The position numbers and the translations under genes were made by a program. This document shows positions 27,684-45,769 of a stretch of DNA of 64,000 nt, piece by piece. Source of the DNA: Rhodanobacteraceae bacterium (GTDB lineage Bacteria; Pseudomonadota; Gammaproteobacteria; Xanthomonadales; SZUA-5); NCBI GenBank assembly GCA_031409855.1, contig JANNYA010000066.1, positions 595 through 64,594 on the forward strand. The letters run 5' to 3'. Every line of letters begins with the position of its first letter. Position 1 is the stretch's first letter. The notes beneath the pieces are model-generated. The model did not search any database. It saw only the letters and a program-made list of their open reading frames with translations, and was not told where the DNA came from.

Positions 27684-27693
27684 TTTGGGGCGA

Positions 27694-29305: not shown

Positions 29306-29340
29306 GGCACTTTAATTTCGATTTAACCCTCTGTTAACCT
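29306..29340 (+). promoter_or_regulatory. conserved upstream element GGCACT-N11-TTAACCCTCTGTTAACCT (copy 1)
   Basis: It shares sequence and geometry with 37158-37192. In both copies TTAAC is repeated with an 11-bp period, 93 nt separate the motif from the receptor ATG, and GGAGA lies 9 nt before the ATG. Confidence 0.45.
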
Positions 29341-29433
29341 CCGCCGGTTCGCTTTTCGCGTGACAACTCAACCCAGGTTGGCAGTGCTTGCTTGGAAACT
29401 GACTCTCTCTTAAGTTTTCGGAGAATTATTAAT

Positions 29434-32313
29434 ATGATGAATCAAACTCAATTAGTGCGTTCCGTTCGCACCGCTCTACTCGCAGGATTGGCCGTTTCCT
29501 TCACCGCACCTGTTTTTGCCGCCGAAGGCGACGAGCAGACGATGAAAGAAGTGGAAGTGCTCGGCTCGCGCATTAAGCGCGCTGATACTGAAACCGCTAG
29601 CCCAGTATTAATGATTGATGCCGCCGCCATTGAACGCGCGGGTGTTGCGACGCTCGGCGACATTATTCAAGAACTTCCAGCCATTGCCGGTGCGGCGACG
29701 AATCCATCGGTTAATAATGGTGGCGGTGACGGCGCTGCTAAAATCTCGCTGCGTGGCTTGGGTGACGAACGAACGTTGTTGTTAGTGAATGGCCGTCGCT
29801 TGAACTACAACGACGTCAACTCAATTCCAGCGAGTTTGGTTGCGTCTATTGAAATCCTTAAAGATGGCGCTTCGGCAATTTACGGCACCGACGCAATCGG
29901 TGGCGTGGTCAACTTCATTCTGAAGAATGACTACGAGGGCGCTCAAGTAAATCTAGACTACGGTGTATCCGCCGAAGATGACGGCGAACGCATGGGCGGT
30001 TCAGCTGCGTTCGGCGTCGCTGGCGAACGTGGTAATTTCATGGTCAATTTGAATTACAGCGACCAAGAAGAAGTTTCTGCCGCTGATCGTGATTATTCGC
30101 GTAATGCGTTATCACTGTATAGCGGTACCGTTACTGTCGGTGGCTCAAGCCGCACTACGACAGGGCGTTACACAGTGCCGCGTTCCGTGGCTCCAGCTGC
30201 CTGCCCAGGCACCAGTGCGAATATCGCCCTGACACGTATAGATGGGCGCCCTGGAACTGCGATTTCGGATTTCCGATGCTTCGCTGCGCCTGGTGATTTA
30301 TTCAATTACCAAGCCGTCGGAAACCTGCAGTTGACTCCACAGGAACGTGCAGGACTATTCTTTGCTGGTAATTTTAACTTCACTGATACCGTTACTGGCT
30401 ACATGGAAGCTTGGACACAAAGCACAAGTTCAGCACAACAAATCGCGCCGTTGCCATTCGATGGCCGTCTGGGCCAAGATGACATCGTGCTACCCGCTAA
30501 CAGTGCTTTCAACCCGTTTGGCGTTGATATTAGGGACAGCCGTTTGCGCTTAAGCCGCATTGGTAATCGCCGTTCCGAGTTTGATACAGATTCCAAACAA
30601 ATTAACGTCGGTGTTAAGGGTGCATTTGGCGATACCTCCTGGGATTGGGATGTCGGCGGCACCTATGGCAAATTGACGCAAGATTTGACCCAGACGGGCT
30701 ATCTATTAACTTCCGCCCTGGGTGCAGCTCTTGGACCCTCGTTCTTCGCAGGCCCGAATCGTACTTTGCCGACTTGCGGTACCCGTGCGGCACCGATCGC
30801 CGGTTGTATTCCCGTCGATTTTTTTGGCGCACCACCTGACGCAACGACCGCTGCCGGTCAAGCGCAGTTAGCGGCGTTAGGATCCATTGCTACGAATACG
30901 GTCAATTCCACAGTTCAAACGTTGAAAACTCTTAACGGGCTGGTTCGGGGCGACGTTTTCGAAACCTCAGCGGGCACCGCCGGTGTTGCTATCGGCGTCG
31001 AGTGGCGTAAAGATTATTACAATTTCGAGCCTGACTTTTTAGCGCGCTTGAACCCTAGCTTTACCTGCTTAATTTCTTCTGAAGCATGCACCACACCTAC
31101 CGTTGGTGAGACTTCCGTGAAGGAAGTCTACGCTGAAATATACGTGCCGCTCTTGGCTGATGCGCCGTTCGCACAAAAACTAAACCTCACGGGTGGCGTT
31201 CGCTTCTCCGACTATGACACTTTCGGCAACACAACCAATGGCAAAATTGGTGTGGAATGGAAACCGTTTGAAGATTTATTAGTGCGAGCAACGTACGCAC
31301 AAGTGTTTCGGGCGCCGACCATCACCGATTTGTTTGGTGGGCAAACTGCAGCTTCGGACAGTTTCACCGACCCGTGCAATCGTTACGGCAGCGCATCAAA
31401 TCCACGTTCTGCTCTGAAAGATGTCGCATGCCGAAACGTCCCAACAAACGGCTCGTTTAATCAAACCGATACCCAGTTGTCGGCCATTGCTAGTGGCAAT
31501 CCAAATGTACAGCCAGAAGATGGCACCACGCTCACCTATGGTTTCGTTTACAGCCCAACTTACTTGGACGGCGCGTCGGCCACCTTAGATTTTTGGCGTT
31601 ATTCGTTGGAAAAAACCATTGGCGCCTTTGGAACTCAGCCCATTCTTAATGGTTGCTTCACATCCGGTGTGTTTTGTGATCGCTATTCACGCGGTACCGA
31701 TGGCGAAATTTTGCGCTTGTTCAACATCGCCGACAACGTTGGCACCACGGATACCAACGGCGTCGATATTGGCTTGCGCTATAACTTTGATACGGAATCT
31801 GCCGGAGCCTTTCGCTTCAACTTAGACTCCACCTATGTCGATAAATATGACACTGGTATCATTTTAGCGGGTTCGTCCACGCCGATTTTTGTGCGTCAAA
31901 ATGCCGGTACGTTCTTGAGCCCAGCACAAGGTGGCGATGGTAACTATAGCCGTTGGCGCGGTTTGGGCAATGCGGTTTGGACGCTGGGTGACTTAGATGT
32001 TTCCTGGACTTCACGCTACATCCACCGTTTCGTCGTCGGCAGCAATAATCCAAACGTCAACTCAACCTGTGCCGATGCCGGTGGCCGCGCCTTTCAATGC
32101 CGTATCGAGCGGGGTGCCCAGACCTATCACAATCTGTCGGTGGGTTACAAAGTGGAACCTATCAATACCAAGTTCCGTTTCGGTGTCGACAACGCGTTCG
32201 ACAAACAACCGCCTATCGTGTTCCAAAACAACTCACTCAACGGCAACACCGATGAGCGCACGTTTGACACGGTCGGCCGTTACTTCTGGATCACTTCAAG
32301 CACAACGTTCTAA
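29434..32313 (+). CDS. TonB-dependent receptor, paralog 1
   Basis: The signal peptide is LVRSVRTALLAGLAVSFTAPVFA. The plug shows ASPVLMID, SLRGLG, LLLVNGRR and IEILKDGASAIYG. It has a ~900-aa barrel ending in F. The start is at MMNQ, because the TTG at 29392 lacks an RBS. Confidence 0.9.
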   Translation: MMNQTQLVRSVRTALLAGLAVSFTAPVFAAEGDEQTMKEVEVLGSRIKRADTETASPVLMIDAAAIERAGVATLGDIIQELPAIAGAATNPSVNNGGGDGAAKISLRGLGDERTLLLVNGRRLNYNDVNSIPASLVASIEILKDGASAIYGTDAIGGVVNFILKNDYEGAQVNLDYGVSAEDDGERMGGSAAFGVAGERGNFMVNLNYSDQEEVSAADRDYSRNALSLYSGTVTVGGSSRTTTGRYTVPRSVAPAACPGTSANIALTRIDGRPGTAISDFRCFAAPGDLFNYQAVGNLQLTPQERAGLFFAGNFNFTDTVTGYMEAWTQSTSSAQQIAPLPFDGRLGQDDIVLPANSAFNPFGVDIRDSRLRLSRIGNRRSEFDTDSKQINVGVKGAFGDTSWDWDVGGTYGKLTQDLTQTGYLLTSALGAALGPSFFAGPNRTLPTCGTRAAPIAGCIPVDFFGAPPDATTAAGQAQLAALGSIATNTVNSTVQTLKTLNGLVRGDVFETSAGTAGVAIGVEWRKDYYNFEPDFLARLNPSFTCLISSEACTTPTVGETSVKEVYAEIYVPLLADAPFAQKLNLTGGVRFSDYDTFGNTTNGKIGVEWKPFEDLLVRATYAQVFRAPTITDLFGGQTAASDSFTDPCNRYGSASNPRSALKDVACRNVPTNGSFNQTDTQLSAIASGNPNVQPEDGTTLTYGFVYSPTYLDGASATLDFWRYSLEKTIGAFGTQPILNGCFTSGVFCDRYSRGTDGEILRLFNIADNVGTTDTNGVDIGLRYNFDTESAGAFRFNLDSTYVDKYDTGIILAGSSTPIFVRQNAGTFLSPAQGGDGNYSRWRGLGNAVWTLGDLDVSWTSRYIHRFVVGSNNPNVNSTCADAGGRAFQCRIERGAQTYHNLSVGYKVEPINTKFRFGVDNAFDKQPPIVFQNNSLNGNTDERTFDTVGRYFWITSSTTF

Positions 32314-32335
32314 ACACTGGATGTTTGTTTGAATA

Positions 32336-32370
32336 TCGAAAACCGTGCGATGCAAGTCGCACGGTTTTTT
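32336..32370. terminator. bidirectional rho-independent terminator between convergent genes
   Basis: A perfect 10-bp stem AACCGTGCGA/TCGCACGGTT with a 6-nt loop is flanked by an A-run upstream and TTTTTT downstream. Confidence 0.7.
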
Positions 32371-34237
32371 AATTCCTGTATGAAAAATACGCCATCCAAG
32401 GATCTAATAACTTGTTCGCTCCGCTTGCTTCAAACTCCGGCAAATACCGCTGAAAGCGATTTAGGGCGCGGGTATTGACCGCTTCGGTCACGGCGGCATA
32501 GCTGGGTGTTGAGATCGCGCGCGTTTTTGCCCTTTCGGTAAAATTAAGCAGCTCTGGCAGCCAAGGCAAGCCTAGAAATTCAACCAGTGCAGCTGCGGTT
32601 TCAGCGGTATTTTCGACAAATGACTCGTATTTAAGCTCGAAAATAGCCAGCGTTAATTTCTGGCGAGCATCGGCGTAAAAACTAAACACCCGGTCGTACA
32701 TGCTTGAAGTTGCTGCCAGGGTGCGCATCGTTACTGCAAACGCGGGCGCGCGAAAATGTTGCATATAGCAACTCAGCACACAATCGGCAGGTTGGCGAAT
32801 CACAACAATCACTTTTGCGCGCGGGAACAAGGCTTGAATCAGCGGTAGCCGGGCCAAATTCAGCGGGTTTTTGTCGACGTAGCGCGCGCCTGAGCTTAAG
32901 TTTGGGCTGACCTTGTTGCACAAGGAAAAATAATGTGCACGCAAATCACCAAGCTGCTCAACACTTAGCCGGTCAAGTTCAGCCGGGTAGCGCAAACCCA
33001 TATCTTGCATGCGCAGAATGCATTTTTGCAAAAATGCTTGCTCATCAAAGGACTGTAGTGCCGGGTGCGCGTCCAGTAATTGCTCCAGCAGCGTCGTGCC
33101 CGAGCGTGGAAAGCCGACCACGAATACCGGATCGGGCCGATCATCCATTGCGGGCTGCACGGCGAACTTAGGAAATCCTTGATTTAACAGCACCAATGGA
33201 TCTTCCTCAAACGCCATTTTTGGGTGCGCAGCTGCTACCTGCGCAAAACGCGCTTCATGCGCTTCGTTCAGCAATGCGAACACAGCCTGCGGCTTGTTCA
33301 GAGCATCCAGCGCTTTCGCCAATTCAAACTGCAGTGCAATGCGTAAATTCGGCTCCAACTTAGTGCCCAGCAAGGGCTCAAGCATGGCTGCTACCTGATC
33401 GAAGCGTTTTTCCCGCGCTGCCAAGCGGGCGTCAAACTGCATCAGTGTTTGCCCGGCTTTGCTTTTCATACGGGTTGCGATGGCTGCATCCGGCGCAAAT
33501 TCCGCGCCCAAGGCAGTCAGCTTGGCACGCGTATCACGCATCTTCACCAGTTGGTTCGAGCGCTCGTAACTCAGTCCTAAGCTAATTAGGGCAAAGGGAT
33601 ATTCAGCTGCCTTTGGCGAAACCTTAAGCGATGCCGCTTCTGCCCCGGCATAGTCGCTCAGTTGCAAAACTAAAAAGGCGTATTCGACCGCTAAATCGGC
33701 CGGCATCGGTGCCGCTTGCAATCGCTGTGCGTTGTCTTTGGCCAAGTCAATTTCATCGAGGGCAATTAGGCATTTCAAATAAAACAGTGCGACTTCCAAG
33801 TCCTGATCGAGCCCGTTTTTAAGCGCCTGCACCACTTCAGCTTTCGCAAGCAGCACTTCCCCTAACTCAAACGCCGCGCGCGCAAGGCCAAAATGCACGC
33901 TGCCGTCCGAAAAGCCAAGCTGTTGCGCCCTTCGTAAGGCCGCGAATGCGGCTTGTGGGTTTGCCAATTCCAATAGTGCGTTGCCCAAATTCGCATGGTG
34001 TTCGGGCACCTGGGATTCGAGCAAAATTAGCGCGCGGTACACTTGTGCCGCCGCTTCTGCCTCGCGCAGCGCCGAGTGCGCTAAGCCTTTCGCGGTTAGC
34101 CACGCGCTGTCGCCTGGCGTTGATGCTAAAGCGCGATCAGCCCAGGCCAAAGTCTGCTGCGGTTTGCCGTTTGCCAGCGCATCAAATGCGCTCTGCAGTG
34201 ACGGGTTTGGCGGTGGCACAGCATTCGGGATAGTCAT
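32369..34237 (-). CDS. TPR-repeat protein with C-terminal PAPS-dependent sulfotransferase domain (copy 1)
   Basis: About 350 aa of TPR-like helical repeats are followed by the 5'-PSB motif VGFPRSGTTLLEQLL and the 3'-PB-like IRQPADCVLS. There is no signal peptide. Confidence 0.85.
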   Translation of the reverse strand: MTIPNAVPPPNPSLQSAFDALANGKPQQTLAWADRALASTPGDSAWLTAKGLAHSALREAEAAAQVYRALILLESQVPEHHANLGNALLELANPQAAFAALRRAQQLGFSDGSVHFGLARAAFELGEVLLAKAEVVQALKNGLDQDLEVALFYLKCLIALDEIDLAKDNAQRLQAAPMPADLAVEYAFLVLQLSDYAGAEAASLKVSPKAAEYPFALISLGLSYERSNQLVKMRDTRAKLTALGAEFAPDAAIATRMKSKAGQTLMQFDARLAAREKRFDQVAAMLEPLLGTKLEPNLRIALQFELAKALDALNKPQAVFALLNEAHEARFAQVAAAHPKMAFEEDPLVLLNQGFPKFAVQPAMDDRPDPVFVVGFPRSGTTLLEQLLDAHPALQSFDEQAFLQKCILRMQDMGLRYPAELDRLSVEQLGDLRAHYFSLCNKVSPNLSSGARYVDKNPLNLARLPLIQALFPRAKVIVVIRQPADCVLSCYMQHFRAPAFAVTMRTLAATSSMYDRVFSFYADARQKLTLAIFELKYESFVENTAETAAALVEFLGLPWLPELLNFTERAKTRAISTPSYAAVTEAVNTRALNRFQRYLPEFEASGANKLLDPWMAYFSYRN

Positions 34238-34289
34238 TTCAGATCAACTCAGGCAATGTTGCACGATTAAACCACCGATCTGTCGAAAT

Positions 34290-34919
34290 ATGCCCGCCCC
34301 GATTAGTCAACCACCCAATGAGCCTGCTGCCATTGTGACCGCAGCGCTGTCGCTTAGCAGCTACGTACAGGTATTTGACAACGCTTTGCCCGCAACCTTT
34401 TGCCAGCAAATGCTGCAGTCTTTTAATTCGCTCGCGCGCTTTCATAAGCCAAACGGCCGTGGTGTGCGCGCCGGGCACGACGCTAGCGCATGGACTGAAC
34501 TTGATATCTCGCCGCTGACTGATGTGAGTTTTCGGCAAATTGTACTTGCCAATATGCACAAGCACTTAGCGCTCTATAACGCCGCCATTGCACAATCCGC
34601 GCCGGTGCCAACGCTGCCCATTCCGGGTACCGACAAAATCAGTGAACTGATTGTCAAACGCTATCGCCCCGATGCCGATGAAGCGTTTCAGCTGCATTTT
34701 GACGCGCTTGGCCCAGTGGCAAACCGCTACATGGTGTTTCTTTGGTATCTAAATGATGTGGCGGAGGGAGGCGAAACTGAGTTTCCAGCGCTTAATGTTT
34801 CCGTCGAACCCAAGGCCGGCCGCCTGGTGATGTTTCCGCCGTATTGGATGTATCAGCATCAGGGGAAAGCGCCACGCAGCGGTGACAAATACATTTTTTC
34901 CAGTTATTTTTTGTTTTGA
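34290..34919 (+). CDS. small 2OG-Fe(II) oxygenase (P4H-like fold, copy 1)
   Basis: The facial-triad context is QLHFDA (HxD) ... YQHQG (distal His), plus WYLNDVAEGGETEFP. It is about 70% identical by eye over the core to the 40286-40846 protein. The ORF-track start at 33981 is rejected. Confidence 0.8.
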   Translation: MPAPISQPPNEPAAIVTAALSLSSYVQVFDNALPATFCQQMLQSFNSLARFHKPNGRGVRAGHDASAWTELDISPLTDVSFRQIVLANMHKHLALYNAAIAQSAPVPTLPIPGTDKISELIVKRYRPDADEAFQLHFDALGPVANRYMVFLWYLNDVAEGGETEFPALNVSVEPKAGRLVMFPPYWMYQHQGKAPRSGDKYIFSSYFLF

Positions 34920-36034
34920 CCATGTTGATTTTCGCCAGCGATACCGTGATTCGGGCCCAAAGCGGTCAGATGTTGATTCACACTACGACAGGCACCTGGC
35001 CGCCATTTGTCGCGCAATCGCCGCAGTTAATAGGCTGGCTGGCGCAATTTATGCGCGCCACCGACGCGACGGCGGCTCTGGGCGCGCTCGATTTTGTCAA
35101 TGCGCAGCAGGCCAAGGGTGTAATTGAGCATTTGCAAAAAAATGGCGCATTAGTTGACGCGCAGTCGACAGCAGCCCAGCTGCCGGAGCCTAGCGCCGCC
35201 CACGCACAAAGCGGCAAACATTTGAATGGTCTGGCACGGCAAATTTATGATCTGAGCGCGGACGTGCAGGGCTTGGGCGAATTTGCGGAACGCCAATTAC
35301 GTCAAAATGGTGGCGCTGGTTTGGAACGGCGATTGCTTAGCCTAGGCGCAAGCATTGACGGTTTACGGCGGGAATTAAGTGCGCTGCGCGAGCCGCATTT
35401 GGCCGCCCAATTCGATGCGCTAAAGCTTAAGCCGGACGCGAACAACCTGAAATTGCACCTAGGCTGCGGCCCCGTGCACTTGGGGGGTTTCATCAATATC
35501 GACATTGCACCTGCGCCCTTGGCGATGAATGTGCTCTGGGGTTTGCCATTTGACGATGGCACCGTTCAAATCGTGTATCTGTCGCATTTATTGGAACATC
35601 TCTTTTATCCCACCGACGTCATGGCCCTGTTTGGCGAAATTTACCGGGTGTTGGCACCCGGCGGCGTTGTACGCGTCGTCGTACCCGATATCGCCAAGTG
35701 CTTAGCCGCGTATGCGCGTGGGGATCAAGCATTTTTTGCGGCGCGGCGTGAAAACTTCAGTTGGTGGCCATCTGATGCCAGTCTGCTAGAAAACTTTCTG
35801 ACTTATGCCGGTGTCGGCCCAGAACCTAGGTATTTATTTGAGTCGCATAAATACGGCTATGATTTTGAAACTTTGGCTAAAGCGCTGGCTAAAGCGGACT
35901 TCGCCGAAATCACCCACTCTGAGTTTCAGAGTAGCCGCGAGCCAGCACTGCGTATAGAACATTTGAGCGCAGCCGCGCGTTGGCGCGCAGGGGACGAGTA
36001 TTTATCCCTATTTGTGGAAGCAATTCGGCCATGA
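34916..36034 (+). CDS. two-domain protein: unknown N-terminal domain (~170 aa) + class I SAM-dependent methyltransferase
   Basis: The SAM-binding motif is LKLHLGCGPVHLGGFINIDI and the post-II region is VLAPGGVVRVVVPD. Its start overlaps the oxygenase stop. Confidence 0.75.
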   Translation: MTMLIFASDTVIRAQSGQMLIHTTTGTWPPFVAQSPQLIGWLAQFMRATDATAALGALDFVNAQQAKGVIEHLQKNGALVDAQSTAAQLPEPSAAHAQSGKHLNGLARQIYDLSADVQGLGEFAERQLRQNGGAGLERRLLSLGASIDGLRRELSALREPHLAAQFDALKLKPDANNLKLHLGCGPVHLGGFINIDIAPAPLAMNVLWGLPFDDGTVQIVYLSHLLEHLFYPTDVMALFGEIYRVLAPGGVVRVVVPDIAKCLAAYARGDQAFFAARRENFSWWPSDASLLENFLTYAGVGPEPRYLFESHKYGYDFETLAKALAKADFAEITHSEFQSSREPALRIEHLSAAARWRAGDEYLSLFVEAIRP

Positions 36035-37107
36035 CGCAAGCCGCTGCACAAGTTTTGCGCCAGTTAGCCAAACAGCTCATGCAGGCGGGTGATTTTAGCA
36101 ACGCCGAGGCTCAAATTCGTGCCGCAATCGCGCTCGCGCCGGGTGCTCCGATCCTACATTTAGAGCACGGGCAGATTTTCGAGCAGCAAAACAATATCAA
36201 TGCTGCCACCCGTGCCTACTACCGCGCCGTGATGAAGGCGCGCGCAAAAGGGCTGTGGTTAGACGATGCAACCGTGCCAGCGCAAGTTTTGCCGCAGGTG
36301 CTGCATGCGATGCAATTCGTAGAAACGCATCGTGATGGTGTGCTGCACGCATTGCTTGAGCCACTCTACGCCCAATTTGGCAAAACTGAACTTGAACGCG
36401 TCACTGGGGCACTCAATATCTATCTGGGTTCCGATCTTACTAAACCAGCAAGTCCGCATCAGCGCCCACACTTTTTATATGTGCCAGGCCTAACTGAAAC
36501 GCCGTTTGTCGACGCCAAGCGATTCAGTTGGATAGACGCAGCACTCGATGCGCGCGCAGCAATCGCGGCTGAGGCGCATGCGGTGTTTGCGAATCAGCGG
36601 GGTGTCGAGCCTTTTCTTCAAGCCGCGCCTGGTAACGATCTGACCGTTTACATAGCAGGCGATCAAGCCAAGTGGGAAGCGCATTTTTTCTATCGGCATG
36701 GCTTAGCAAACCCGGAAAACTTAGCCGCTAGTCCTGCAACTGCGAACTTGCTGGCAAAAGCGCCACTAGTGCGCATCGCCGAACATGCGCCGGAAATATG
36801 CTTTTCCGCACTGACGCCTGGTAGCCATATCTTGGCGCACACCGGCGTCACCAATCTGCGTTTGGTGGCGCATTTGCCGTTGATTTTGCCTGACCGCTGC
36901 GCGCTAAAAGTGGCTGGCATCGAACGTGCCTGGAAACTGGATGAGGTTTTAATATTTGATGACACTTTTGAGCACGAAGCCTGGAATCGCAGCGATCAGA
37001 CCCGGGTCATTTTGCTGATGGATGCTTGGCATCCGGATTTGACGCAGGCCGAGCAGATTGCCTTTGCCGAACTTATTGAAGGCATTGGCTGCTTCAACCG
37101 TGGCTGA
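36031..37107 (+). CDS. TPR + aspartyl/asparaginyl beta-hydroxylase-family (Asp_Arg_Hydrox) 2OG oxygenase
   Basis: SHILAHTGVTNLRLVAHLPLILP...FDDTFEHEAWNRSDQTRVILLMDAWHP is the family signature. The ATG at 36031 overlaps the upstream stop (ATGA). Confidence 0.85.
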   Translation: MTQAAAQVLRQLAKQLMQAGDFSNAEAQIRAAIALAPGAPILHLEHGQIFEQQNNINAATRAYYRAVMKARAKGLWLDDATVPAQVLPQVLHAMQFVETHRDGVLHALLEPLYAQFGKTELERVTGALNIYLGSDLTKPASPHQRPHFLYVPGLTETPFVDAKRFSWIDAALDARAAIAAEAHAVFANQRGVEPFLQAAPGNDLTVYIAGDQAKWEAHFFYRHGLANPENLAASPATANLLAKAPLVRIAEHAPEICFSALTPGSHILAHTGVTNLRLVAHLPLILPDRCALKVAGIERAWKLDEVLIFDDTFEHEAWNRSDQTRVILLMDAWHPDLTQAEQIAFAELIEGIGCFNRG

Positions 37108-37157
37108 ATTAATTGCCGCCCACATTCGCTGACTGTAACGCCTGTGTAACTTGACAG

Positions 37158-37192
37158 GGCACTAGCCGTGTGACTTAACTCTCTGTTAACCT
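37158..37192 (+). promoter_or_regulatory. conserved upstream element GGCACT-N11-TTAACTCTCTGTTAACCT (copy 2)
   Basis: See 29306-29340. The spacing to the SD and ATG of receptor paralog 2 is identical. Confidence 0.45.
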
Positions 37193-37285
37193 GCCAGCTT
37201 GTGCTCGATGTCGAGCTCAAATTCAATGGCCTTGCCTTGCGGGGCTGGTTTTCTAACGGCTCTGCTGTACTGGAGAAAGAAACAA

Positions 37286-40147: not shown

Positions 40148-40182
40148 ATCCAGCGTTGTATTGAGGTTTTAATTAGCATTGA

Positions 40183-40210
40183 GGGGCTGGCCGATAGGCT
40201 GGCCCCTTTT
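40183..40210 (+). terminator. rho-independent terminator after receptor paralog 2
   Basis: A 10-bp stem GGGGCTGGCC/GGCTGGCCCC (two G-U pairs) with a GATA loop is followed by TTTT. Confidence 0.75.
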
Positions 40211-40217
40211 GCGTTTT

Positions 40218-40229
40218 GTGTGTACACAC
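40218..40229. promoter_or_regulatory. perfect 12-bp palindrome GTGTGTACACAC, candidate operator
   Basis: It lies 56 nt upstream of the 40286 ATG, between a terminator and the next operon. Confidence 0.3.
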
Positions 40230-40285
40230 GGTGTAAAAGCGTGCCGTATGCCAAGCAAAAAAATATTTAAGTAGTTGAGGTTGTT

Positions 40286-40846
40286 ATGCTTTCTTTAGAT
40301 CATTTTGTTCGCACCTATGATCAGCCTGGCCCGCCGACTTGGTGTGCTGAGTTAATCGAACGCTTTGAGCAATTGCAGCGATTTCAACAAGCTAACGGCG
40401 CAGGTATTCGGCCCGGCTTAGAGCAAAGCGCGTGGACTGAGTTGGATATTGGCCGCATTGCCGATGCCGATTTTCGAGCTAAGATCAATCAGTTTATCGT
40501 CGAGAGTTTTATTCAATACAATAAAGATCTGGGATTGTCGATGCCGATTAGTCCACCTCGGCAACACGCGGAACTGATCGTAAAACGCTATCGGGCAGGC
40601 ACTGACGAATCCTTTCAATTGCATTTTGACGCTTTAGGTGAAGTGTCCAATCGCTATCTTGTATTTCTTTGGTATCTAAATGATGTGGATGAGGGCGGGG
40701 CTACGGAGTTCCCGGACCTAAGGCTAGCCATTGCACCTAAAGCCGGGCGATTGCTGGTATTCCCGCCCTATTGGATGTTTCAGCATCGCGGTACACCCCC
40801 GATCAGCGGCGACAAATACATACTTTCAACTTATTTAGTTTACTAA
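40286..40846 (+). CDS. small 2OG-Fe(II) oxygenase (copy 2)
   Basis: QLHFDA...WYLNDVDEGGATEFP...FQHRG is present. It is a paralog of the 34290-34919 protein. Confidence 0.8.
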   Translation: MLSLDHFVRTYDQPGPPTWCAELIERFEQLQRFQQANGAGIRPGLEQSAWTELDIGRIADADFRAKINQFIVESFIQYNKDLGLSMPISPPRQHAELIVKRYRAGTDESFQLHFDALGEVSNRYLVFLWYLNDVDEGGATEFPDLRLAIAPKAGRLLVFPPYWMFQHRGTPPISGDKYILSTYLVY

Positions 40847-40862
40847 CCAGGCCAGATATTGC

Positions 40863-42641
40863 ATGACCAATCTTACGGTTGCCCTTGAACACTTTAGCGC
40901 GCAGCAACCGGAACAAGCGATTGCGATCTGCGATCAACTGTTAGCGCTAGAACCTAACGCTACCGGCCCTATCACCGTGCGCGCGCTGTGTCTGGCAATG
41001 CGCGGCGACTATGCTGCAGCGGAAACACAGTTCAGACGCCTGATCGAGCTGGAGCCAAACGACTCTTCTCACTATATCAATTTAGCAGCGACGCTAAAGG
41101 ATCAGGGTAGACCCGCCGACGCTTTTCAGCTGATGCAAAGTGCGCTTAATGGGCCTGCAGATAGTGCCGCGCTCAGATTTGAGATTGCGATTTGGCAAAT
41201 GGACGGGGCAAATTATTTAGCCGCCTGCAAGTTGCTTGAGCCTCTATTTGCGGCCTCGCCAGCGGATGCCTTTCTTCGTGTCCTTTTCGCGCGTTGCCTC
41301 ATAGAGACGGCGAGATTGCCACGCGCAAGACAAGTGCTACTGTCATTAAAAGATTATCAAAACGCCGACGTGCTCACCAAAATTCAGGCCGGAATTGCAT
41401 TTATGCAACTGGACAAATTTGCTGAAGCTGAAGCGTTGTTTCGTCAAGCGCTAGCCCTTGATCCTGGGGCGGATGATGCGAGCTATAACTTACTCGCACT
41501 ATTTGAGCGTTCGAACCAAATGGACTTGGCGGTGACTTTGCTTGCGCAGTTGCCAGTAGCACAAACGGCTGAGCAAAGCTTGCTTCGGGCCAAGGTGCTT
41601 CGGCGCTCTGGACAAGTCAGTGCCGCGCTCAAAATGTTGCGTGCGATAGATTCGACTAAAATTAATAGCAGAACGTCGGCCGATGTGAACTTCGCGCTAG
41701 CTGGCGTTGAGGATCAATCTGGCAACTGTGACGCTGCGATGCGCGCATTGGATATCGCGCATGCCGCACAGTTGAGCACCTACAAGACGAATCACCCGGA
41801 CCGAACCGAAACGTTGGACTTAGGCTGGGTGAATGAAACCGTCAGCCGCATGCAGATCGAAAAGTTCGCGGGCTCAAACCCTTGCGAGGATACGCCTACC
41901 TTCCTAGTCGGCTTTATGCGCTCAGGCACGACCCTAATTGAACAAATGCTCGCCGCACACCCGCAAGTTCTCACACTGGACGAGAGACCCGCGCTCGAAT
42001 CCGTCGTCGTCGAAATTCGGCGCCTTGGCTTGCGCTATCCGCAAGACCTAGATCAGTTCAACAGCGCAGAGATAGATGCGCTGAGAGCTGTGTATTTTAC
42101 CGAAGCGGACGCGCACATCACGCGCCTACCAAATGTGCATCTAGTCGACAAATACCCTTTTAATTTAGGCCGCCTCGGACTTATTCGCCTATTGTTCCCC
42201 CGTGCAAAAGTAGTGTTTGCGCTTCGCCATCCGTGCGATGTCGTTTTAAGCTCTGTCATGCAACACTTTAAAATCAATTCGGGCACGATGGCTTTCAACT
42301 CCATTGGCTCGGCGGCCACCACTTACGCGGCGGTGATGTCGATGTGGGTTGAGCAACGTGAAATATCTGGGTTGGACATCCACACAATAAGGTACGAATC
42401 ACTGGTTCAGTCACCCGAACCAAGCGCAAGAGCACTACTCAAGCACCTCGGATTAGCATGGAGTGACGCCGTACTAGTTCCCAATAAACAGGCGAAAGGC
42501 AAGTTTATTTCCACCCCAAGCTACTCCCAAGTCGCCACCCCGATTCACCAACGCTCGGTTGAGCGTTGGCAAAAATACGGGCGCTATTTCGAGCCAGTTC
42601 TGCCCATACTTCAACCCTGGATTGACCGCTTTGAGTATTGA
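40863..42641 (+). CDS. TPR-repeat + sulfotransferase protein (copy 2)
   Basis: It has an N-terminal TPR half, then VGFMRSGTTLIEQML and LRHPCDVVLS. It is a paralog of the 32369-34237 protein. Confidence 0.85.
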   Translation: MTNLTVALEHFSAQQPEQAIAICDQLLALEPNATGPITVRALCLAMRGDYAAAETQFRRLIELEPNDSSHYINLAATLKDQGRPADAFQLMQSALNGPADSAALRFEIAIWQMDGANYLAACKLLEPLFAASPADAFLRVLFARCLIETARLPRARQVLLSLKDYQNADVLTKIQAGIAFMQLDKFAEAEALFRQALALDPGADDASYNLLALFERSNQMDLAVTLLAQLPVAQTAEQSLLRAKVLRRSGQVSAALKMLRAIDSTKINSRTSADVNFALAGVEDQSGNCDAAMRALDIAHAAQLSTYKTNHPDRTETLDLGWVNETVSRMQIEKFAGSNPCEDTPTFLVGFMRSGTTLIEQMLAAHPQVLTLDERPALESVVVEIRRLGLRYPQDLDQFNSAEIDALRAVYFTEADAHITRLPNVHLVDKYPFNLGRLGLIRLLFPRAKVVFALRHPCDVVLSSVMQHFKINSGTMAFNSIGSAATTYAAVMSMWVEQREISGLDIHTIRYESLVQSPEPSARALLKHLGLAWSDAVLVPNKQAKGKFISTPSYSQVATPIHQRSVERWQKYGRYFEPVLPILQPWIDRFEY

Positions 42642-42814
42642 TTGGCAGCGCGCGCAGCAGGTCACGTTCGCGCATATTCGAGCTATTTAGTATTACAGAA
42701 ACGCCAGTTGGATAAAAATAACAGATGAAATTCTCCTTACGATTGCGTTAAACTTTCGCTAAGTCGCGGTTACATCCACGCGCTGTCCCCACACAAAGCA
42801 TAAGGATTCAAAAA

Positions 42815-45769
42815 ATGTTGAAGCAAAATGAACTGGTGCACTCAATTCGAGTTGCCCTTGTCTTGGGTTTGACTGGCGTGGTTTCGATGCCGGTGATGGC
42901 GCAAGAAGATACCGATCAAGAGACTCTGAAGCCTGTTGAAGTTCTCGGCTCGCGCATTCGTCGTGTTCAATCCGAAACAGCAAACCCAGTGCTTTCGTTT
43001 GAGCGCGCTGATATTGAAAAGACGGGTTTAACCAGCATCGCTGAAGTCCTGAAAGAAATCAGCGTCAACGGCCCATCTTTGAGCCTGAACACCAACAACG
43101 GTAATACCTCGGGTAACTCGGGCGTCAACTTGCGTAACTGCGCGTCAAACCGCACTTTGGTGCTGGTCAATGGCAAGCGCTGGGTTTCGAACAACGGTTT
43201 GGCTGGCTCAGTAGATCTAAGCTCCATTCCACTTGCCGCCGTTGAGCGTTTTGAAGTCCTGAAAGATGGCGCGTCGGCGCTATACGGTTCGGATGCACTT
43301 TGCGGCGTGATCAACGTGCAAACGCGTAGCGATTTCGAAGGTATGGAAGTGAATACCTACTACGGCGAAACGGACGATGGTGACGGCGAGCGCCAAGCTT
43401 ATTCTTTAACTGCTGGCGGCTCGAATGAGAAATTCTCCGGCATGTTCAATGTTTCCTACAGCGAACAAAAACCAATTTTTGCGGGTAATCGCGAAATTTC
43501 CGCCGTGCCGCTGTTTGGGTTCCCGGCCAATGTCTCCTCGCCAGGACGCGCCAGCACCACGGGCCCATTCGGTAATATCGTTGTGCGCGGTGTTAACCTG
43601 ACGTTGGACCCAACCAAGCCAGGTTGTGCACCAAACCAACTTTGCGCCCCAGGCACGGCAAGTAGCTTTAGACCCTATAATTTCTTGACCGATGGTTATA
43701 ACTTTGCCCCCGATAACTATTTAATACAACCGCAAAAAGCGTATTCGGCTTTCGGCGAAATTGGTTACCAAATCACCGACACCATCCGTGCCAAGGCCGA
43801 GATTTTTTACACCAACCGCAATGGCGATGCCCAATTAGCCGCACAGCCGCTTGCGCCGTTGACCATCTCTGCAACCAGTATCTATAACCCATTCGGCGTA
43901 GCGATCACCGGTGCGTCATTCCGTCCAATTGCGCAGCCGCGCAGTTTTGGTCAGGATCAAGACACTTGGCGCTTTGGTGCCGGTTTGGAAGGTGATTTTG
44001 AATTAGCTGACCGCAGCTTCTATTGGGATGTTGGCTATTCCTATGCTGATAATCGTCAAGTGCAGCTAAAGAATGGTTTTTATTTCACCAGCCGCATTAA
44101 CGAAGCGACTGGTGCGTCGTTTATTGACGCGCTGGGCGTTGCCCGTTGCGGTACCGCTGCAGCGGTTATCGCTAACTGCGTACCGTTGAACGTGCTCGGT
44201 GGGCCCAGTGGTTTGACCAGTGCGATGTTGAACTACGTCACCGTTGCACCTAGAAATTTACAGCAATCGGATCAAAAATCCTACACGGCCAACATTACGG
44301 GTGACTTGTTTGATCTCTCGGCCGGTCCTCTCGCGTTTGCGTTTGGTTTAGAGCGTCGCGAAGAAAATGGCTCGGATAATCCTGATCCATTAACCAATGC
44401 CGGCCTTGTTTTAGGTGACAACCCTTTTGCCCCAACCTCGGGTGGTTTTTCTGTTAATGAAGCTTTTGGTGAGCTCAGCATTCCAGTCCTTTCTGACGTT
44501 GCCTTTGCGAAGTTATTGGAATTCTCGGTAGCCGCACGCTATTCGGATTATTCCTCCTTCGGTAGTACCACCAATCCTAAACTCAGCATGCGTTGGCAGC
44601 CGGTTGACGATCTAATCGTGCGCGGTTCGTTCGGCAAAGGCTTCCGTGCGCCGTCGGTTTCAGAATTGTTCCAAGGTAGTGCGACAGGCCGTCCGGGGTT
44701 TCAAGATTTGTGTTCTGCGACCAATCCCGCTTTTATTGGGAGCGCTTCAACCCGTGCCGCGTGTCTGGCGAACGGTGCCCCCGTTGGATTTAGCTCACGC
44801 TTAGGACAGACCTTTCTAACCACAGGTGGCAGTGCATTACTGCAGCCTGAGACTTCCGAGTCAAAAACCATTGGTACTGTATACTCTCCAACTTGGGCGG
44901 ACGGTTTAGATATGTACGTCGATTGGTACAGCATTGAAATTAACGATGCGATCGGCGGAGACGGCGCGAACACGATTTTAGAAGGCTGTTACGTGCAACT
45001 TAACCCTGACCGATGTGCGCAAATTACGCGCGACCGCACGGGTGCAGTAAACGGGAACATCGGCGAAATTTCTGGCATTATCTCACTCAACAAGAACTTC
45101 CGTGGCGGACTTGAAACCGAAGGTTTCGATTTCGGTGGTGGCTATCGTTTTGAAACCGAAAACTGGGGCAAGTTCGTCACCCGTCTTGATAGTACCTATG
45201 TGAGCTATTTCGGCGATGTCGGCAAGCCTAATAACGGTGAAGTCAACTCGGATGGTGACATCTCAGCCGGAAACTTAGTTGGCACATTGCCTGCTGGCAG
45301 CTCTGGCGGCGCGGTTCGGCATCGTTTGCGCTCGAATCTAGCTAACACCTGGACTTATGGCGATTTTTCGGTTACCGCATCACTTGAGTACCGCAGTCGC
45401 GTGCAGGAATCCTGCAATAACGTTTTCAACACGGCAACGAACTTAACGCCTCGTGATCCCGCGTTCGCTGCCCTGAAAGACCTTTGTTCCGATCCTAGCC
45501 GCAACGTCCTCGTTTACTCCTTTAGGCCCGGTACTCGCGAAGTTGTTGCTACCGCCGCTGGACGACCACGTAACCAACTCGGCGGCGTAACTTACACGCA
45601 CTTGCAAGGGAGCTGGAGCGCGCCTTGGGACGCTACTGTTACTCTAGGAGCGCGCAACCTGTTCGACAAAAAGCCTCCGTTCTCCTCGGATTCATTTGCA
45701 AACTCCTTTGATGCGCAGTATCTGGTACCAGGACGCTTTTTCTATGTGAACTATGTACAGAAGTTCTAA
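42815..45769 (+). CDS. TonB-dependent receptor, paralog 3 (more divergent)
   Basis: The signal peptide is LVHSIRVALVLGLTGVVSMPVMA. The plug shows ANPVLSFE, LVLVNGKR and FEVLKDGASALYG. The protein ends ...YVQKF. Confidence 0.9.
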   Translation: MLKQNELVHSIRVALVLGLTGVVSMPVMAQEDTDQETLKPVEVLGSRIRRVQSETANPVLSFERADIEKTGLTSIAEVLKEISVNGPSLSLNTNNGNTSGNSGVNLRNCASNRTLVLVNGKRWVSNNGLAGSVDLSSIPLAAVERFEVLKDGASALYGSDALCGVINVQTRSDFEGMEVNTYYGETDDGDGERQAYSLTAGGSNEKFSGMFNVSYSEQKPIFAGNREISAVPLFGFPANVSSPGRASTTGPFGNIVVRGVNLTLDPTKPGCAPNQLCAPGTASSFRPYNFLTDGYNFAPDNYLIQPQKAYSAFGEIGYQITDTIRAKAEIFYTNRNGDAQLAAQPLAPLTISATSIYNPFGVAITGASFRPIAQPRSFGQDQDTWRFGAGLEGDFELADRSFYWDVGYSYADNRQVQLKNGFYFTSRINEATGASFIDALGVARCGTAAAVIANCVPLNVLGGPSGLTSAMLNYVTVAPRNLQQSDQKSYTANITGDLFDLSAGPLAFAFGLERREENGSDNPDPLTNAGLVLGDNPFAPTSGGFSVNEAFGELSIPVLSDVAFAKLLEFSVAARYSDYSSFGSTTNPKLSMRWQPVDDLIVRGSFGKGFRAPSVSELFQGSATGRPGFQDLCSATNPAFIGSASTRAACLANGAPVGFSSRLGQTFLTTGGSALLQPETSESKTIGTVYSPTWADGLDMYVDWYSIEINDAIGGDGANTILEGCYVQLNPDRCAQITRDRTGAVNGNIGEISGIISLNKNFRGGLETEGFDFGGGYRFETENWGKFVTRLDSTYVSYFGDVGKPNNGEVNSDGDISAGNLVGTLPAGSSGGAVRHRLRSNLANTWTYGDFSVTASLEYRSRVQESCNNVFNTATNLTPRDPAFAALKDLCSDPSRNVLVYSFRPGTREVVATAAGRPRNQLGGVTYTHLQGSWSAPWDATVTLGARNLFDKKPPFSSDSFANSFDAQYLVPGRFFYVNYVQKF

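Follow-up and report, generated by a model that had tools for sequence, protein, structure and literature searches.

The window, that is, the whole stretch of 64,000 nucleotides analysed here, contains at 29.3-45.8 kb an island of three paralogous TonB-dependent receptors, two TPR-sulfotransferases (ST1 and ST2), two small 2OG oxygenases (OG1 and OG2), a methyltransferase (MT) and a TPR-AspH protein, and all nine genes (9/9) were found at or close to the positions listed in Table 1. Two versions of one self-contained and portable module can be distinguished in the island: type A consists of receptor 1, ST1 and OG1-MT-AspH, and type B of receptor 2-OG2-ST2, which is followed by receptor 3. Receptor and enzyme set were duplicated jointly within the window. 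The first-pass annotation had listed the receptors, the sulfotransferases and the small oxygenases, all of which we could confirm, but it had overlooked MT and TPR-AspH. The module is therefore larger than first described, as it includes these two proteins and, in relatives, AspH-sulfotransferase fusions. The statement that every receptor neighbours an enzyme pair applies to receptors 1 and 2, whereas receptor 3 has no pair of its own and merely follows ST2.

Table 1. Positions of genes and sequence features of the island within the window
Feature	Position	Strand	Remarks
18-bp motif TTAACCCTCTGTTAACCT, inverted repeat TTAAC-N5-GTTAA	29323..29340	+	94 nt upstream of receptor 1 ATG
TonB-dependent receptor 1, 959 aa	29434..32313	+	Plug + TonB_dep_Rec_b-barrel
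TPR + TPST-like PAPS sulfotransferase 1 (ST1), 622 aa	32369..34237	-	PF13469 E 4e-37; no signal peptide
Small P4H-like 2OG-Fe(II) oxygenase 1 (OG1), 209 aa	34290..34919	+	PF13640
SAM methyltransferase-like protein (MT), 372 aa	34916..36034	+	Methyltransf_11/25
TPR + Asp/Asn beta-hydroxylase-like 2OG oxygenase (TPR-AspH), 358 aa	36031..37107	+	PF05118 E 2e-40 + TPR
18-bp motif, second copy TTAACTCTCTGTTAACCT	37175..37192	+	94 nt upstream of receptor 2 ATG
TonB-dependent receptor 2, 953 aa	37286..40147	+	Plug + barrel domains
Strong hairpin + T-run between receptor 2 and OG2	40181..40208	+	12-pair stem, 8 GC pairs
Small P4H-like 2OG-Fe(II) oxygenase 2 (OG2), 186 aa	40286..40846	+	PF13640
TPR + TPST-like PAPS sulfotransferase 2 (ST2), 592 aa	40863..42641	+	PF13469 E 1.5e-35 + many TPR matches
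TonB-dependent receptor 3, 984 aa	42815..45769	+	Plug + barrel domains

The 18-bp motif is present in two copies in the window versus 0.01 expected, each lying 94 nt ahead of a receptor ATG, and judged from its sequence this inverted repeat is a candidate for a shared operator. The hairpin between receptor 2 and OG2 likely acts as a partial terminator, which would set the expression ratio of receptor to enzymes. The gap between OG2 and ST2 is only 17 bp, and the corresponding open reading frames overlap by 4 bp in another locus (L004).

All three receptors possess Plug and TonB_dep_Rec_b-barrel domains (Pfam), and the domain scan detected no STN extension in any of them. Over their full length, receptors 1 and 2 are 46% identical, and either shares 32% identity with receptor 3. 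Receptor 1 is a member of an enzyme-linked clade: in every case examined, its orthologues (50-72% identity) are encoded adjacent to ST, OG, MT and AspH genes. For receptor 2, a 953-aa product was called likewise in L081. Receptor 3 belongs to a separate clade, which mostly lacks enzyme linkage elsewhere, and a relative in L094 (1427 bits) has no enzymes in its vicinity.

Both sulfotransferases combine TPR repeats with a Sulfotransfer_3 domain (PF13469, E 1e-35 to 1e-37) and share 29% identity. ST1 contains PRSGTT at residue 377, DKNP at 455, RQPADCVLS at 481 and TPSY at 577, and its orthologues are found in L034, L043, L072 and L168-L171. Of the motifs noted in the first-pass annotation, RxPxDxxxS is present in both proteins (RHPCDVVLS in ST2), whereas PRSGTT is restricted to ST1 and reads MRSGTT in ST2. 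Among PDB entries, the sulfotransferase domain matches TPST1/2 best (profile E 1e-28 to 1e-31; E 1e-13 for ST2 by sequence comparison), and the AF2 model of ST2 (pLDDT 93.4) superimposes on TPST with a TM-score of 0.68-0.73 and has a TPR domain resembling the OGT/SPY superhelix. The use of PAPS is supported by the presence of the 5'-PSB and 3'-PB motifs, of residues corresponding to the catalytic Arg, Glu, Lys and Ser of TPST, and of an APS kinase gene adjoining TPR-sulfotransferase genes in L014, L065 and L066.

OG1 and OG2 are 51% identical, and both contain the HxD motif (H136/D138 and H113/D115, respectively) and a distal His. Neither matches an NCBIfam model. Sequence matches of OG2 in the PDB are exclusively prolyl 4-hydroxylases, the leading Foldseek matches of its AF2 model (pLDDT 91.7) are protein prolyl and lysyl hydroxylases, and the structures similar in fold to the window oxygenase include that of PiuC (9qn0). 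The longest open reading frame for TPR-AspH begins at 35980, but ATG 36031 is the likely start, and a close relative encodes a 358-aa orthologue. TPR-AspH matches human ASPH with E 1e-24, both having a TPR plus oxygenase layout. No known domain was detected in residues 1-205 of MT, which is kept as a module member in relatives and is fused to TPR-AspH in L169. Together with the AspH-sulfotransferase fusions in L082, L164, L166 and L167, this fusion indicates that the hydroxylase, sulfotransferase and methyltransferase steps belong to one pathway. As the enzymes lack signal peptides, we infer that they are cytoplasmic.

The pairing of receptors and enzymes noted in the first-pass annotation is confirmed; it occurs widely and much more often than expected by chance. 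Among 80 sulfotransferase-anchored loci, a receptor gene lies at most two genes away in 37, compared with a background of 9/545 (1.7%). The gene directly upstream of the TPR-sulfotransferase is a receptor in 28 of the 74 loci used for this count, and a receptor on the same strand in 26, against the same 1.7% background, which corresponds to an enrichment of about 20-fold and a binomial p of about 1e-30; same-strand gaps range from -4 to 156 bp. All four blind-chosen loci anchored on receptor 1 orthologues (4/4, 50-72% identity) contain the same five-gene block of receptor, ST and OG-MT-AspH, located in differing contexts (atp operon, mreBCD, SLT/TauE). Of five loci anchored on the oxygenase, all (5/5) have an adjacent TPR-sulfotransferase, and 4/5 have a receptor at most two genes off. 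Gene order is maintained between taxonomic orders, the genes being separated by short gaps or overlapping. ST-OG pairs without an adjoining receptor also occur (L004, L035, L165), and outside the Proteobacteria the TPR-sulfotransferase adjoins an APS kinase and giant GT/MT/pyruvyltransferase proteins. A TSUP/TauE carrier gene adjoins the module in 3/8 type-A examples, and a sulfatase gene was noted near the module in L171.

The earlier view that the island is no classical locus for the use of carbohydrates, siderophores or cobalamin is supported, and searches for a Fur box and for a riboswitch were negative. The reported absence of a glycosidase, an NRPS, an inner-membrane transporter and an ECF sigma/anti-sigma pair held in domain scans, and no glycoside hydrolase, NRPS/NIS, MbnABC or STN/ECF component was found in the island with Pfam and NCBIfam.

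Beyond the observed gene content, family membership, catalytic residues, conserved and strongly non-random linkage and pathway-tying fusions, we tentatively propose, as the leading explanation but without regarding it as probable, and by analogy with Fiu-YbiX, PiuA-PiuC and CciT-CciO and with methanobactin MbnT-MbnS, that the enzymes hydroxylate and then O-sulfate, and also methylate, a peptide-like ligand handled by the receptor, a function that is unproven. Cytoplasmic tailoring enzymes would in this way serve one clade of TonB-dependent transporters. The P4H-like and TPR-AspH-like 2OG oxygenases would put hydroxyl groups on an amino-acid-derived substrate, whose peptide-like nature is inferred, as is the order of the reactions. 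The TPR-fused, PAPS-dependent TPST-like sulfotransferase would then esterify a hydroxyl with sulfate, the acceptor being either the newly made aliphatic hydroxyl or Tyr, and the SAM methyltransferase would add a methyl group. We infer that the neighbouring transporter has this anionic product as its ligand and that the product is exported and re-imported. Most likely, the ligand would be made in the cell, exit via a non-dedicated carrier, possibly the TSUP/TauE protein, and re-enter through the receptor, either free or carrying a scarce nutrient. Receptor and sulfotransferases would diversify together, with the first hydroxylase staying conserved. The pattern seen across orthologues speaks for this, as the oxygenase remains at 57-61% identity, whereas the receptor drops from 72% to 50% and the TPR domain of ST from 56% to 30%, and as up to five sulfotransferase paralogues are arrayed beside one receptor (e.g. 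L016, L084). However, the more than 90 loci have no conserved gene for scaffold synthesis, for a precursor peptide or for a dedicated exporter, and no iron, zinc or phosphate signal is present upstream of the linked receptors, where searches for Fur, Zur, Pho and sigma-54 sites were negative. In addition, TPR repeats are attached to three types of catalytic domain (and Sel1 to a fourth oxygenase), which is typical of protein-acting enzymes, each of the three enzyme types has protein-modifying enzymes as its closest relatives of known structure, and the enzymes also occur away from receptors, as in the three ST-OG loci mentioned above and in other phyla.

The main alternative, which we consider somewhat unlikely, is that the receptor pre-protein itself is the substrate. 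Before Sec export, the enzymes would act in the cytoplasm on the unfolded chain, held by the TPR domains, and would introduce hydroxyl groups at Pro and Asp/Asn, O-linked sulfate and methyl groups. These changes would create anionic or metal-binding groups or alter a surface recognised by phages or bacteriocins. Cytoplasmic modification prior to export has a precedent in the Aah, TibC and HMW1C transferases, which glycosylate autotransporters or adhesins. The receptor is the sole conserved non-enzyme partner, with no small precursor ORF, scaffold gene, exporter or importer, it was co-duplicated with the enzyme set in the window, and the three catalytic types share an OGT/SPY-like recruitment domain and have relatives that modify secreted or other proteins (TPST1/2; collagen and EF-Tu prolyl hydroxylases; human ASPH). 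The data on CciT-CciO are compatible with this, as CciT protein is produced but non-functional in the absence of CciO, and pooled culture does not rescue the mutant. Loss of piuC protects against exogenous siderophore drugs, and as these are synthetic and not cell-made, action on the transporter side fits better here than ligand synthesis. On the other hand, direct evidence is lacking and no sulfated or hydroxylated TonB-dependent receptor is known. Among 118 receptor-1 orthologues, the invariant clade-specific residues are not enriched in Tyr, Pro or Asp. A pre-protein substrate is also hard to reconcile with an oxygenase conserved far above the receptor, with four or five sulfotransferases per receptor, with ST-OG pairs lacking an adjacent receptor, and with a related receptor in L083 (40% identity) that has no enzymes nearby.

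Unlikely in our view, but in keeping with the usual logic of receptor loci, is the modification of imported cargo. The cargo, for instance a peptide, a phenolic from plants or microbes or a xenosiderophore, would be hydroxylated, methylated and sulfated in the cytoplasm, in order to free a bound nutrient, to detoxify the compound or to trap it so that uptake continues. This would account for the missing scaffold and exporter genes and agrees with model 3 for CciO and with the proposed metabolism of an imported substrate by PiuC; the TSUP/TauE protein at 3/8 modules could serve as inner-membrane importer, and the sulfatase gene in L171 would also fit. However, PAPS-dependent sulfation is costly and non-catabolic, no inner-membrane importer is conserved across the more than 90 loci, the module is not accompanied by degradative enzymes, and TPR fusions and multi-sulfotransferase arrays are unexpected for detoxification. 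The three explanations raised in the first-pass annotation (a secreted and re-imported molecule, an imported substrate, and modification of a protein or peptide) all remain live and none is settled. That the enzymes share no substrate with the receptor is very unlikely. In this case they would act on a lipid or polysaccharide of the envelope, and the receptor gene would be no more than a travelling or co-regulated companion. The best NCBIfam matches of TPR-AspH, OlsC (85 bits) and LpxO (54 bits), both far below cutoffs, would fit this, as would the neighbours of non-Proteobacteria TPR-sulfotransferases. Against it stand the roughly 20-fold enriched adjacency, the conserved and tightly spaced gene order noted above, the differing chromosomal sites of the module and the lack of conserved lipid or polysaccharide genes in its vicinity.

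In agreement with the earlier view that no function has been demonstrated, a full-text literature search gave only one general mention, in which Iyer, Abhiman, de Souza and Aravind (2010) described TonB-like receptors near peptide-type 2OG dioxygenases, a tryptophan halogenase, SapC and a sulfotransferase, and proposed hydroxylation followed by sulfation, yielding amino-acid-derived, siderophore-like products (PMC2938197). At the core of the neighbourhoods in that study are JmjC or Syn9-gp52-like oxygenases, together with halogenases, SapC and NRPS genes, and neither the block of TPR-TPST-like sulfotransferase, P4H-like oxygenase, TPR-AspH and methyltransferase nor its tie to one receptor clade was singled out; the study contained no experiments.

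The module couples receptors to enzymes resembling animal protein modifiers that sulfate Tyr and hydroxylate Pro or Asp, and its job is still unexplained. The nearest matches of the sulfotransferase, the small oxygenase and the AspH-like protein are TPST1/2, collagen P4H and ASPH, respectively, with identities of only 20-25%, and the TPR superhelix is like that of OGT and SPINDLY. The window enzymes are cytoplasmic and soluble, whereas the animal enzymes are lumenal or membrane-anchored. A match to well-characterised families with a known unrelated pathway would have refuted the claim of the first-pass annotation; the families TPST, P4H and AspH are well characterised, but the enzymes do not fall into a known unrelated pathway. 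In Xanthomonas, which belongs to the same bacterial order, the cytoplasmic, PAPS-dependent, TPST-like sulfotransferase RaxST of the RaxX-RaxST-RaxAB system sulfates tyrosine in a peptide that is later secreted, but it is not known to carry a TPR domain or to be linked to a receptor. Unlike that system, the module lacks a precursor gene and a peptidase-containing ABC exporter, and the likeness to RaxST does not rest on a direct sequence comparison.

Methanobactin operons pair the TonB transporter MbnT with the sulfotransferase MbnS (PMC3621798), so that a PAPS sulfotransferase encoded beside a TonB-dependent transporter acts on an aliphatic hydroxyl (Thr) of a secreted and re-imported peptide metallophore. 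However, MbnS is a PF00685 protein without a TPR domain, whereas the window enzymes combine PF13469 with TPR, and the window lacks an MbnA precursor, MbnB/C, a MATE exporter and a sigma/anti-sigma pair. Pairs of a TonB-dependent transporter and a cytoplasmic 2OG/Fe(II) dioxygenase are known from E. coli (Fiu-YbiX), Pseudomonas (PiuA-PiuC) and Caulobacter (CciT-CciO) (PMC12004947, PMC12004943). CciO is strictly required for CciT to function, and the ligand has been suggested to be self-made and perhaps cell-associated (PMC12004947). With synthetic siderophore drugs, higher MICs result from mutations in piuC (PMC11878004). The proteins of the module are not orthologous to those of these pairs, as OG2 matches YbiX only with a BLASTP E of 0.1 and receptor 2 matches Fiu in the plug domain only, and the module differs from the pairs in lacking a Fur box and in having additional TPR-sulfotransferases, TPR-AspH and a methyltransferase. 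Nevertheless, these pairs are a close conceptual precedent, since here too a transporter gene lies beside a gene for a small cytoplasmic PF13640 (P4H-like) oxygenase, the two are widely co-conserved, and neither the inner-membrane transporter nor the mechanism is known.

The receptors lie in an island of nine genes at 29.3-45.8 kb, which is flanked by housekeeping genes on both sides (see table). Besides three TonB-dependent receptors, two TPR-sulfotransferases (ST1 and ST2) and two small P4H-like 2OG oxygenases (OG1 and OG2), the island codes for a methyltransferase-like protein (MT) and a protein combining TPRs with an Asp/Asn beta-hydroxylase domain (AspH). The latter two had not been mentioned in the first-pass annotation. 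The sulfotransferase motifs described there are present, with PRSGTT at position 377 and RQPADCVLS at 481 of ST1 and RHPCDVVLS at 455 of ST2, except that ST2 carries MRSGTT, not PRSGTT, at position 352. In pairwise comparison, the receptor paralogues share 46%, 32% and 32% identity, the two sulfotransferases 29% and the two oxygenases 51%. As a signal peptide is absent from all island enzymes, we infer a cytoplasmic site of action, with access to PAPS, 2OG and SAM. One relative, with an ST2 orthologue of 89% identity, keeps all nine genes in unchanged order.

Coordinates of the island genes (from the ORF listing with Pfam/NCBIfam), their flanks and features of related loci from other genomes (L numbers)
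Feature	Source	Position	Strand	Remark
anmK	window	27685-28779		upstream flank of island
DUF3224 gene	window	28776-29180		upstream flank of island
Receptor 1	window	29434-32313	+	
ST1	window	32369-34237	-	TPR-sulfotransferase
OG1	window	34290-34919	+	small oxygenase
MT	window	34916-36034	+	methyltransferase-like
AspH	window	36031-37107	+	TPR + Asp/Asn beta-hydroxylase
Receptor 2	window	37286-40147	+	
OG2	window	40286-40846	+	
ST2	window	40863-42641	+	
Receptor 3	window	42815-45769	+	
RNase T-like exonuclease	window	45887-46444		downstream flank of island; gyrA further on
AspH + Sulfotransfer_3 fusion	L082	13510-15348		
AspH + Sulfotransfer_3 fusion	L164	5748-7649		
AspH + Sulfotransfer_3 fusion	L166	4822-6672		
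AspH + Sulfotransfer_3 fusion	L167	4910-6703		
MT + TPR + AspH single protein	L169	12495-14405		Silanimonas
Sel1 repeats + PF13640 oxygenase protein	L167	387-1706		
TSUP/TauE gene	L170	6033-6839		beside type-A module
TSUP/TauE gene	L171	6025-6825		beside type-A module
TSUP/TauE gene	L072	6326-7147		beside type-A module

Outside the island, the window codes for a further TonB-dependent receptor. This fourth, shorter protein of 669 aa (window 6537-8546) adjoins a response-regulator diguanylate cyclase, a hybrid histidine kinase and an OmpR-type regulator (the whole group spanning 6537-13481). An IS66-family transposase fragment (2080-2970) is located near a Shedu SduA_C-domain protein (3978-4820), and the GC content of the stretch around these genes falls to 0.46 at 4001-6000; the region 2080-4820 is probably a small defence or mobile islet.

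The linkage of receptors and enzymes, for which the first-pass annotation had proposed a neighbourhood analysis, goes beyond chance. Using an alignment of 14 sequences as sulfotransferase anchor, at least 558 loci were found in a one-genome-per-species collection, mainly in Xanthomonadales/Lysobacterales, Steroidobacteraceae and Sphingomonadales. For 80 of these, the neighbouring genes were analysed by ORF calling followed by phmmer with the window proteins. A receptor is the immediate upstream gene of the anchor in 28/74 loci, against a background of 9 receptors among 545 genes (1.7%) at a distance of at least four genes (binomial p ~1e-30). The upstream receptor is on the same strand in 26 of these 28 loci, at a distance of -4 to 156 bp, and 37/80 loci have a receptor no more than two genes away. 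Directly downstream of the anchor, we found a further sulfotransferase in 15 loci, a small oxygenase in 11, AspH in four and a receptor in four. When all neighbouring ORFs were clustered, only the sulfotransferase, receptor, AspH, small oxygenase, MT and TPR + GT9-like families recurred; no transporter, exporter or importer, regulator, scaffold enzyme or PAPS-synthesis gene was recurrent among them.

When the three receptors together served as seed for a metagenome scan, most of the proteins recovered were receptor-3-like, and few had enzymes nearby, indicating that the receptor 3 clade is largely unlinked. With this seed the reverse association looked weak, an impression that was dispelled once orthologues of receptor 1 were used as the anchor. 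Four such orthologues, picked solely by identity (72, 58, 53 and 50%) and by the size of the available stretch, all lie in the arrangement of the type A module of the window, that is a receptor, a convergent sulfotransferase and an OG-MT-AspH block (4/4). The contexts of these blindly chosen loci are the atp operon, mreBCD and, in two Lysobacter genomes, SLT/TauE. Three more orthologous type-A blocks are present in the related loci L034, L043 and L072. In oxygenase-anchored loci, a TPR-sulfotransferase is adjacent in 5/5 and a receptor is within two genes in 4/5 cases. The link between receptor and enzymes is real and portable from one genomic site to another, and it is specific to the receptor 1/2 clade. 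Relatives of receptor 1 and of the oxygenase fall in Xanthomonadales/Lysobacterales and Steroidobacteraceae, and the carriers of the module include many Xanthomonadales of soil and water that can be cultured (Lysobacter, Arenimonas, Silanimonas, Dyella, Rhodanobacter, Stenotrophomonas and one Xanthomonas).

Further arrangements were seen among the related loci. In five loci of Rhodanobacteraceae type (L016, L029, L007, L060 and L084), four or five divergent TPR-sulfotransferase paralogues are arrayed beside a single receptor. TPR + GT9-like (heptosyltransferase-like) proteins of ~735 aa adjoin the TPR-sulfotransferase in 11 loci of Steroidobacteraceae type (e.g. L009 1872-4073) and are a third catalytic type fused to TPRs in these neighbourhoods. 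A TSUP/TauE membrane protein (PF01925), of the sulfite/organosulfonate carrier family, is encoded directly beside the type-A module, at either end, in 3/8 examples, and no such gene is present in the window. This protein may carry a sulfated product or cargo across the inner membrane.

The enzymes themselves appear to act in one pathway. Domains that are separate in the window are fused elsewhere, and in L167 a PF13640 oxygenase is joined to Sel1 repeats (see table). The small oxygenase and sulfotransferase genes are 17 bp apart in the window and overlap by 4 bp in the related locus L004. Such classic Rosetta-stone and operon signals indicate that hydroxylation, sulfation and methylation take place on one molecule. 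It is plausible, judged from gene fusion and spacing alone, that a newly installed hydroxyl would serve as the sulfate acceptor. Sulfation of a fresh hydroxyl has been proposed for related neighbourhoods by Iyer et al. (PMC2938197).

By a wide margin, the best solved relatives of the sulfotransferase domain are the tyrosylprotein sulfotransferases TPST1/2 (E 1e-28 to 1e-31 with a profile and 1e-13 with a single sequence), and the next-best solved match is to CurM-type sulfotransferases (E 1e-3). In a HMMER alignment to TPST1, ST2 residues R353, E374, K430 and S553 fall on the positions of the catalytic Arg, Glu, Lys and Ser, which we take to be Arg78, Glu99, Lys158 and Ser285 in TPST2. R353, E374 and K430 are invariant among 45 homologues, as are S354 and G355, and S553 is at least 90% conserved. 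The AlphaFold2 model of ST2 (pLDDT 93.4) matches TPST1/2 in Foldseek with target TM-scores of 0.66-0.73 over ~270 residues, TPSTs being the sole sulfotransferases in its top 50 matches, and its N-terminal half resembles the TPR superhelices of OGT and SPINDLY. To our knowledge, RaxST is at present the only characterised bacterial relative of TPST. A tyrosine acceptor is inferred only by family; the AspH-sulfotransferase fusions instead hint at a newly made aliphatic hydroxyl. The predicted PAPS dependence is supported by the binding motifs and by APS kinase genes, which adjoin TPR-sulfotransferases only in receptor-less loci of other phyla.

The small oxygenases belong to a compact, unusually conserved family of more than 1,300 members, all single-domain proteins of ~190 aa, in which the top matches listed are 54-67% identical. 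Across 36 homologues, the HxD...H iron triad and the 2OG-binding basic residue (H113, D115, H167 and K177) do not vary. Sequence matches in the PDB are to prolyl 4-hydroxylases only, and the DSBH fold of the model (pLDDT 91.7) matches protein prolyl and lysyl hydroxylases from viruses, bacteria, algae and humans. Among its top 50 fold matches, the only other proteins are PolD, an uncharacterised Shewanella oxygenase and, further down, PiuC (9qn0). AspH (PF05118 E 2e-40 plus TPR_14/16) aligns with human ASPH over 130 residues (E 1e-24), and the TPR + oxygenase layout is found in both; with the NCBIfam models for OlsC and LpxO, its scores are far under the cutoffs. In MT, a class I SAM domain is preceded by an N-terminal half without a recognisable domain.

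TonB-dependent transporters combine a plug domain at the N-terminus with a beta-barrel of 22 strands. PF07715 and PF00593 are found in each of the three island receptors, which start with hydrophobic signal sequences ending in AxA, followed by a TonB-box-like VEVLGSR or VVVTGTR, and end in a C-terminal F. No FecA-like transducer features, i.e. an STN domain in the receptors or sigma/anti-sigma genes within the island, were detected. Solved transporters were matched by profile over the plug domain only, so that none is close enough to suggest a substrate. The receptor 1 family is marked by three conserved Cys pairs and by an Asn-rich motif, QNNSLNGN (residues ~931-938, nt ~32224-32247), which is conserved to at least 97% among 118 orthologues of receptor 1 and missing from unlinked receptor-3-like proteins. 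Most members of the receptor 3-like clade, including the closest relative of receptor 3 found (1427 bits, L094 6920-9952), have no sulfotransferase or oxygenase nearby. A few members of this clade (in L087, L098 and L085) adjoin a PF13759 (2OG-FeII_Oxy_5) oxygenase and a divergent TPR-sulfotransferase.

Receptors 1 and 2 also share an 18-bp motif, TTAACyCTCTGTTAACCT (29323-29340 and 37175-37192), located exactly 94 nt upstream of both start codons, with two copies observed versus 0.01 expected. Its dyad, TTAAC-N5-GTTAA, fits the T-N11-A box of LysR-type regulators. The motif is absent upstream of receptor 3, and the dyad alone is found upstream of one enzyme-linked receptor elsewhere (L098 position 1347) and is not general across loci. 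Between receptor 2 and OG2, a strong hairpin with a 12-pair stem followed by a T-run (40181-40208) suggests that read-through is attenuated and the receptor expressed above the enzymes. The divergent ST1/OG1 intergenic region (34237-34290) is only 53 bp long, so that the promoter of one gene or of both must lie inside neighbouring coding sequence; it measures 11-70 bp in the modules L168-L171. Iron control by Fur was not supported, the best boxes upstream of the receptors being no better than the rest of the window or shuffled sequence. Fur, Zur, Pho and sigma-54 consensus scans of the window and of 29 linked-receptor upstream regions likewise gave nothing better than shuffled sequence; for Fur, this negative is weak as it rests on a consensus scan only. 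A search of the island for riboswitches and other RNA elements (Rfam) gave nothing but one sub-threshold RNAI match.

The function of the module is inferred only and none has been shown. We tentatively favour, without holding it to be established or even probable, that the enzymes tailor the ligand of the neighbouring receptor, which would be made in the cell, exported and retaken. Prior experience with receptor loci speaks for such a tailored ligand, as do the arrays of several sulfotransferases, the TSUP/TauE anion-carrier gene beside some type-A modules and the pattern of divergence: the first enzyme is conserved (57-61%), whereas identity falls from 72 to 50% in the receptor and from 56 to 30% in the TPR domain of the sulfotransferase. 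Precedents are methanobactin with MbnT/MbnS (PMC3621798) and CciT-CciO, where a dioxygenase is required and a self-made ligand has been proposed (PMC12004947).

The receptor pre-protein itself could be the substrate of the enzymes, which we regard as rather unlikely. A modified receptor would fit the self-contained nature of the module, the action on proteins of the nearest characterised relatives of each of the three enzyme types, the TPR recruitment domains on three catalytic types and the protection of Pseudomonas without piuC from exogenous siderophore drugs (PMC11878004). Against this, some ST-OG pairs lack an adjacent receptor and the receptor sequence has no signature of post-translational modification, the clade-specific invariant residues of the 118 orthologues not being enriched for Tyr, Pro or Asp. 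Covalent modification of this clade's transporters ahead of export by dedicated cytoplasmic enzymes encoded next to them, through prolyl/aspartyl hydroxylation, O-sulfation and methylation, is an unlikely proposal. If it were true, it might explain why Fiu, PiuA and CciT depend on YbiX, PiuC and CciO. Processing of an imported cargo by the enzymes would account for the missing scaffold genes; we consider it quite unlikely, as it leaves both the costly sulfation and the missing importer unexplained. Pure co-location of receptor and enzymes is very improbable in view of the linkage statistics.

Solving the function of the module would yield either a ligand or metallophore of a new, sulfated and hydroxylated class and the route by which it is taken up, or the first sulfated or hydroxylated bacterial outer-membrane transporter, and would give a defined substrate to a bacterial soluble, TPR-fused relative of the animal TPSTs. 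Our targeted full-text search of the literature found no experimental or dedicated bioinformatic treatment of the module, and no publication on the 2026 PiuC structure. TonB-like receptors with dioxygenases and sulfotransferases are mentioned, in general terms, by the survey of Iyer et al. 2010 alone (PMC2938197).

When compared with known systems, the island does not belong to the siderophore (NRPS/NIS) or carbohydrate-utilisation (CUT/PUL) loci. The hallmarks of these, an NRPS/NIS synthetase or a glycoside hydrolase with an inner-membrane transporter and a regulator, occur neither in the island nor among the recurrent neighbours. It is likewise no member of the RaxX-RaxST or lasso-peptide clusters, as genes for lasso B/C proteins or ABC-peptidases are found neither in the island nor among recurrent neighbours. 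Nor is it a methanobactin operon, for which the MbnA, MbnB (DUF692) and MbnC domains would be expected; these occur in no island protein. A hidden precursor peptide was rejected, since the intergenic gaps of the island do not exceed 254 bp and no family of small ORFs of 20-89 aa recurs over the 80 loci. An anti-phage defence system was also discarded, PADLOC giving only a match to a generic 2OG-domain model. Orthology to YbiX/Fiu was rejected by sequence comparison (OG2 against E. coli YbiX in BLASTP, E 0.1 and 18 bits); the small oxygenases match no NCBIfam model, and Fur regulation is without support at the island receptors in the consensus scan. As with YbiX, PiuC and CciO, the oxygenase adjoins a TonB-dependent transporter, in the window and in 4 of the 5 oxygenase-anchored loci. 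CciT function strictly needs the cytoplasmic dioxygenase CciO, a self-made and possibly cell-bound ligand has been proposed, and why a TonB-dependent transporter needs a cytoplasmic oxygenase was put explicitly as a question for this pair in 2025 (PMC12004947). This puzzle bears on clinical cefiderocol resistance via PiuC, and the robust and specific linkage described here, with its many culturable carriers, bears directly on it. Taken together, the island is not a member of the Fiu-YbiX, PiuA-PiuC and CciT-CciO systems, yet it is similar to them in coupling a transporter to cytoplasmic P4H-like chemistry, and with two hydroxylase types, TPST-like sulfotransferases and a methyltransferase it provides a richer and independent case of the same transporter-oxygenase puzzle.
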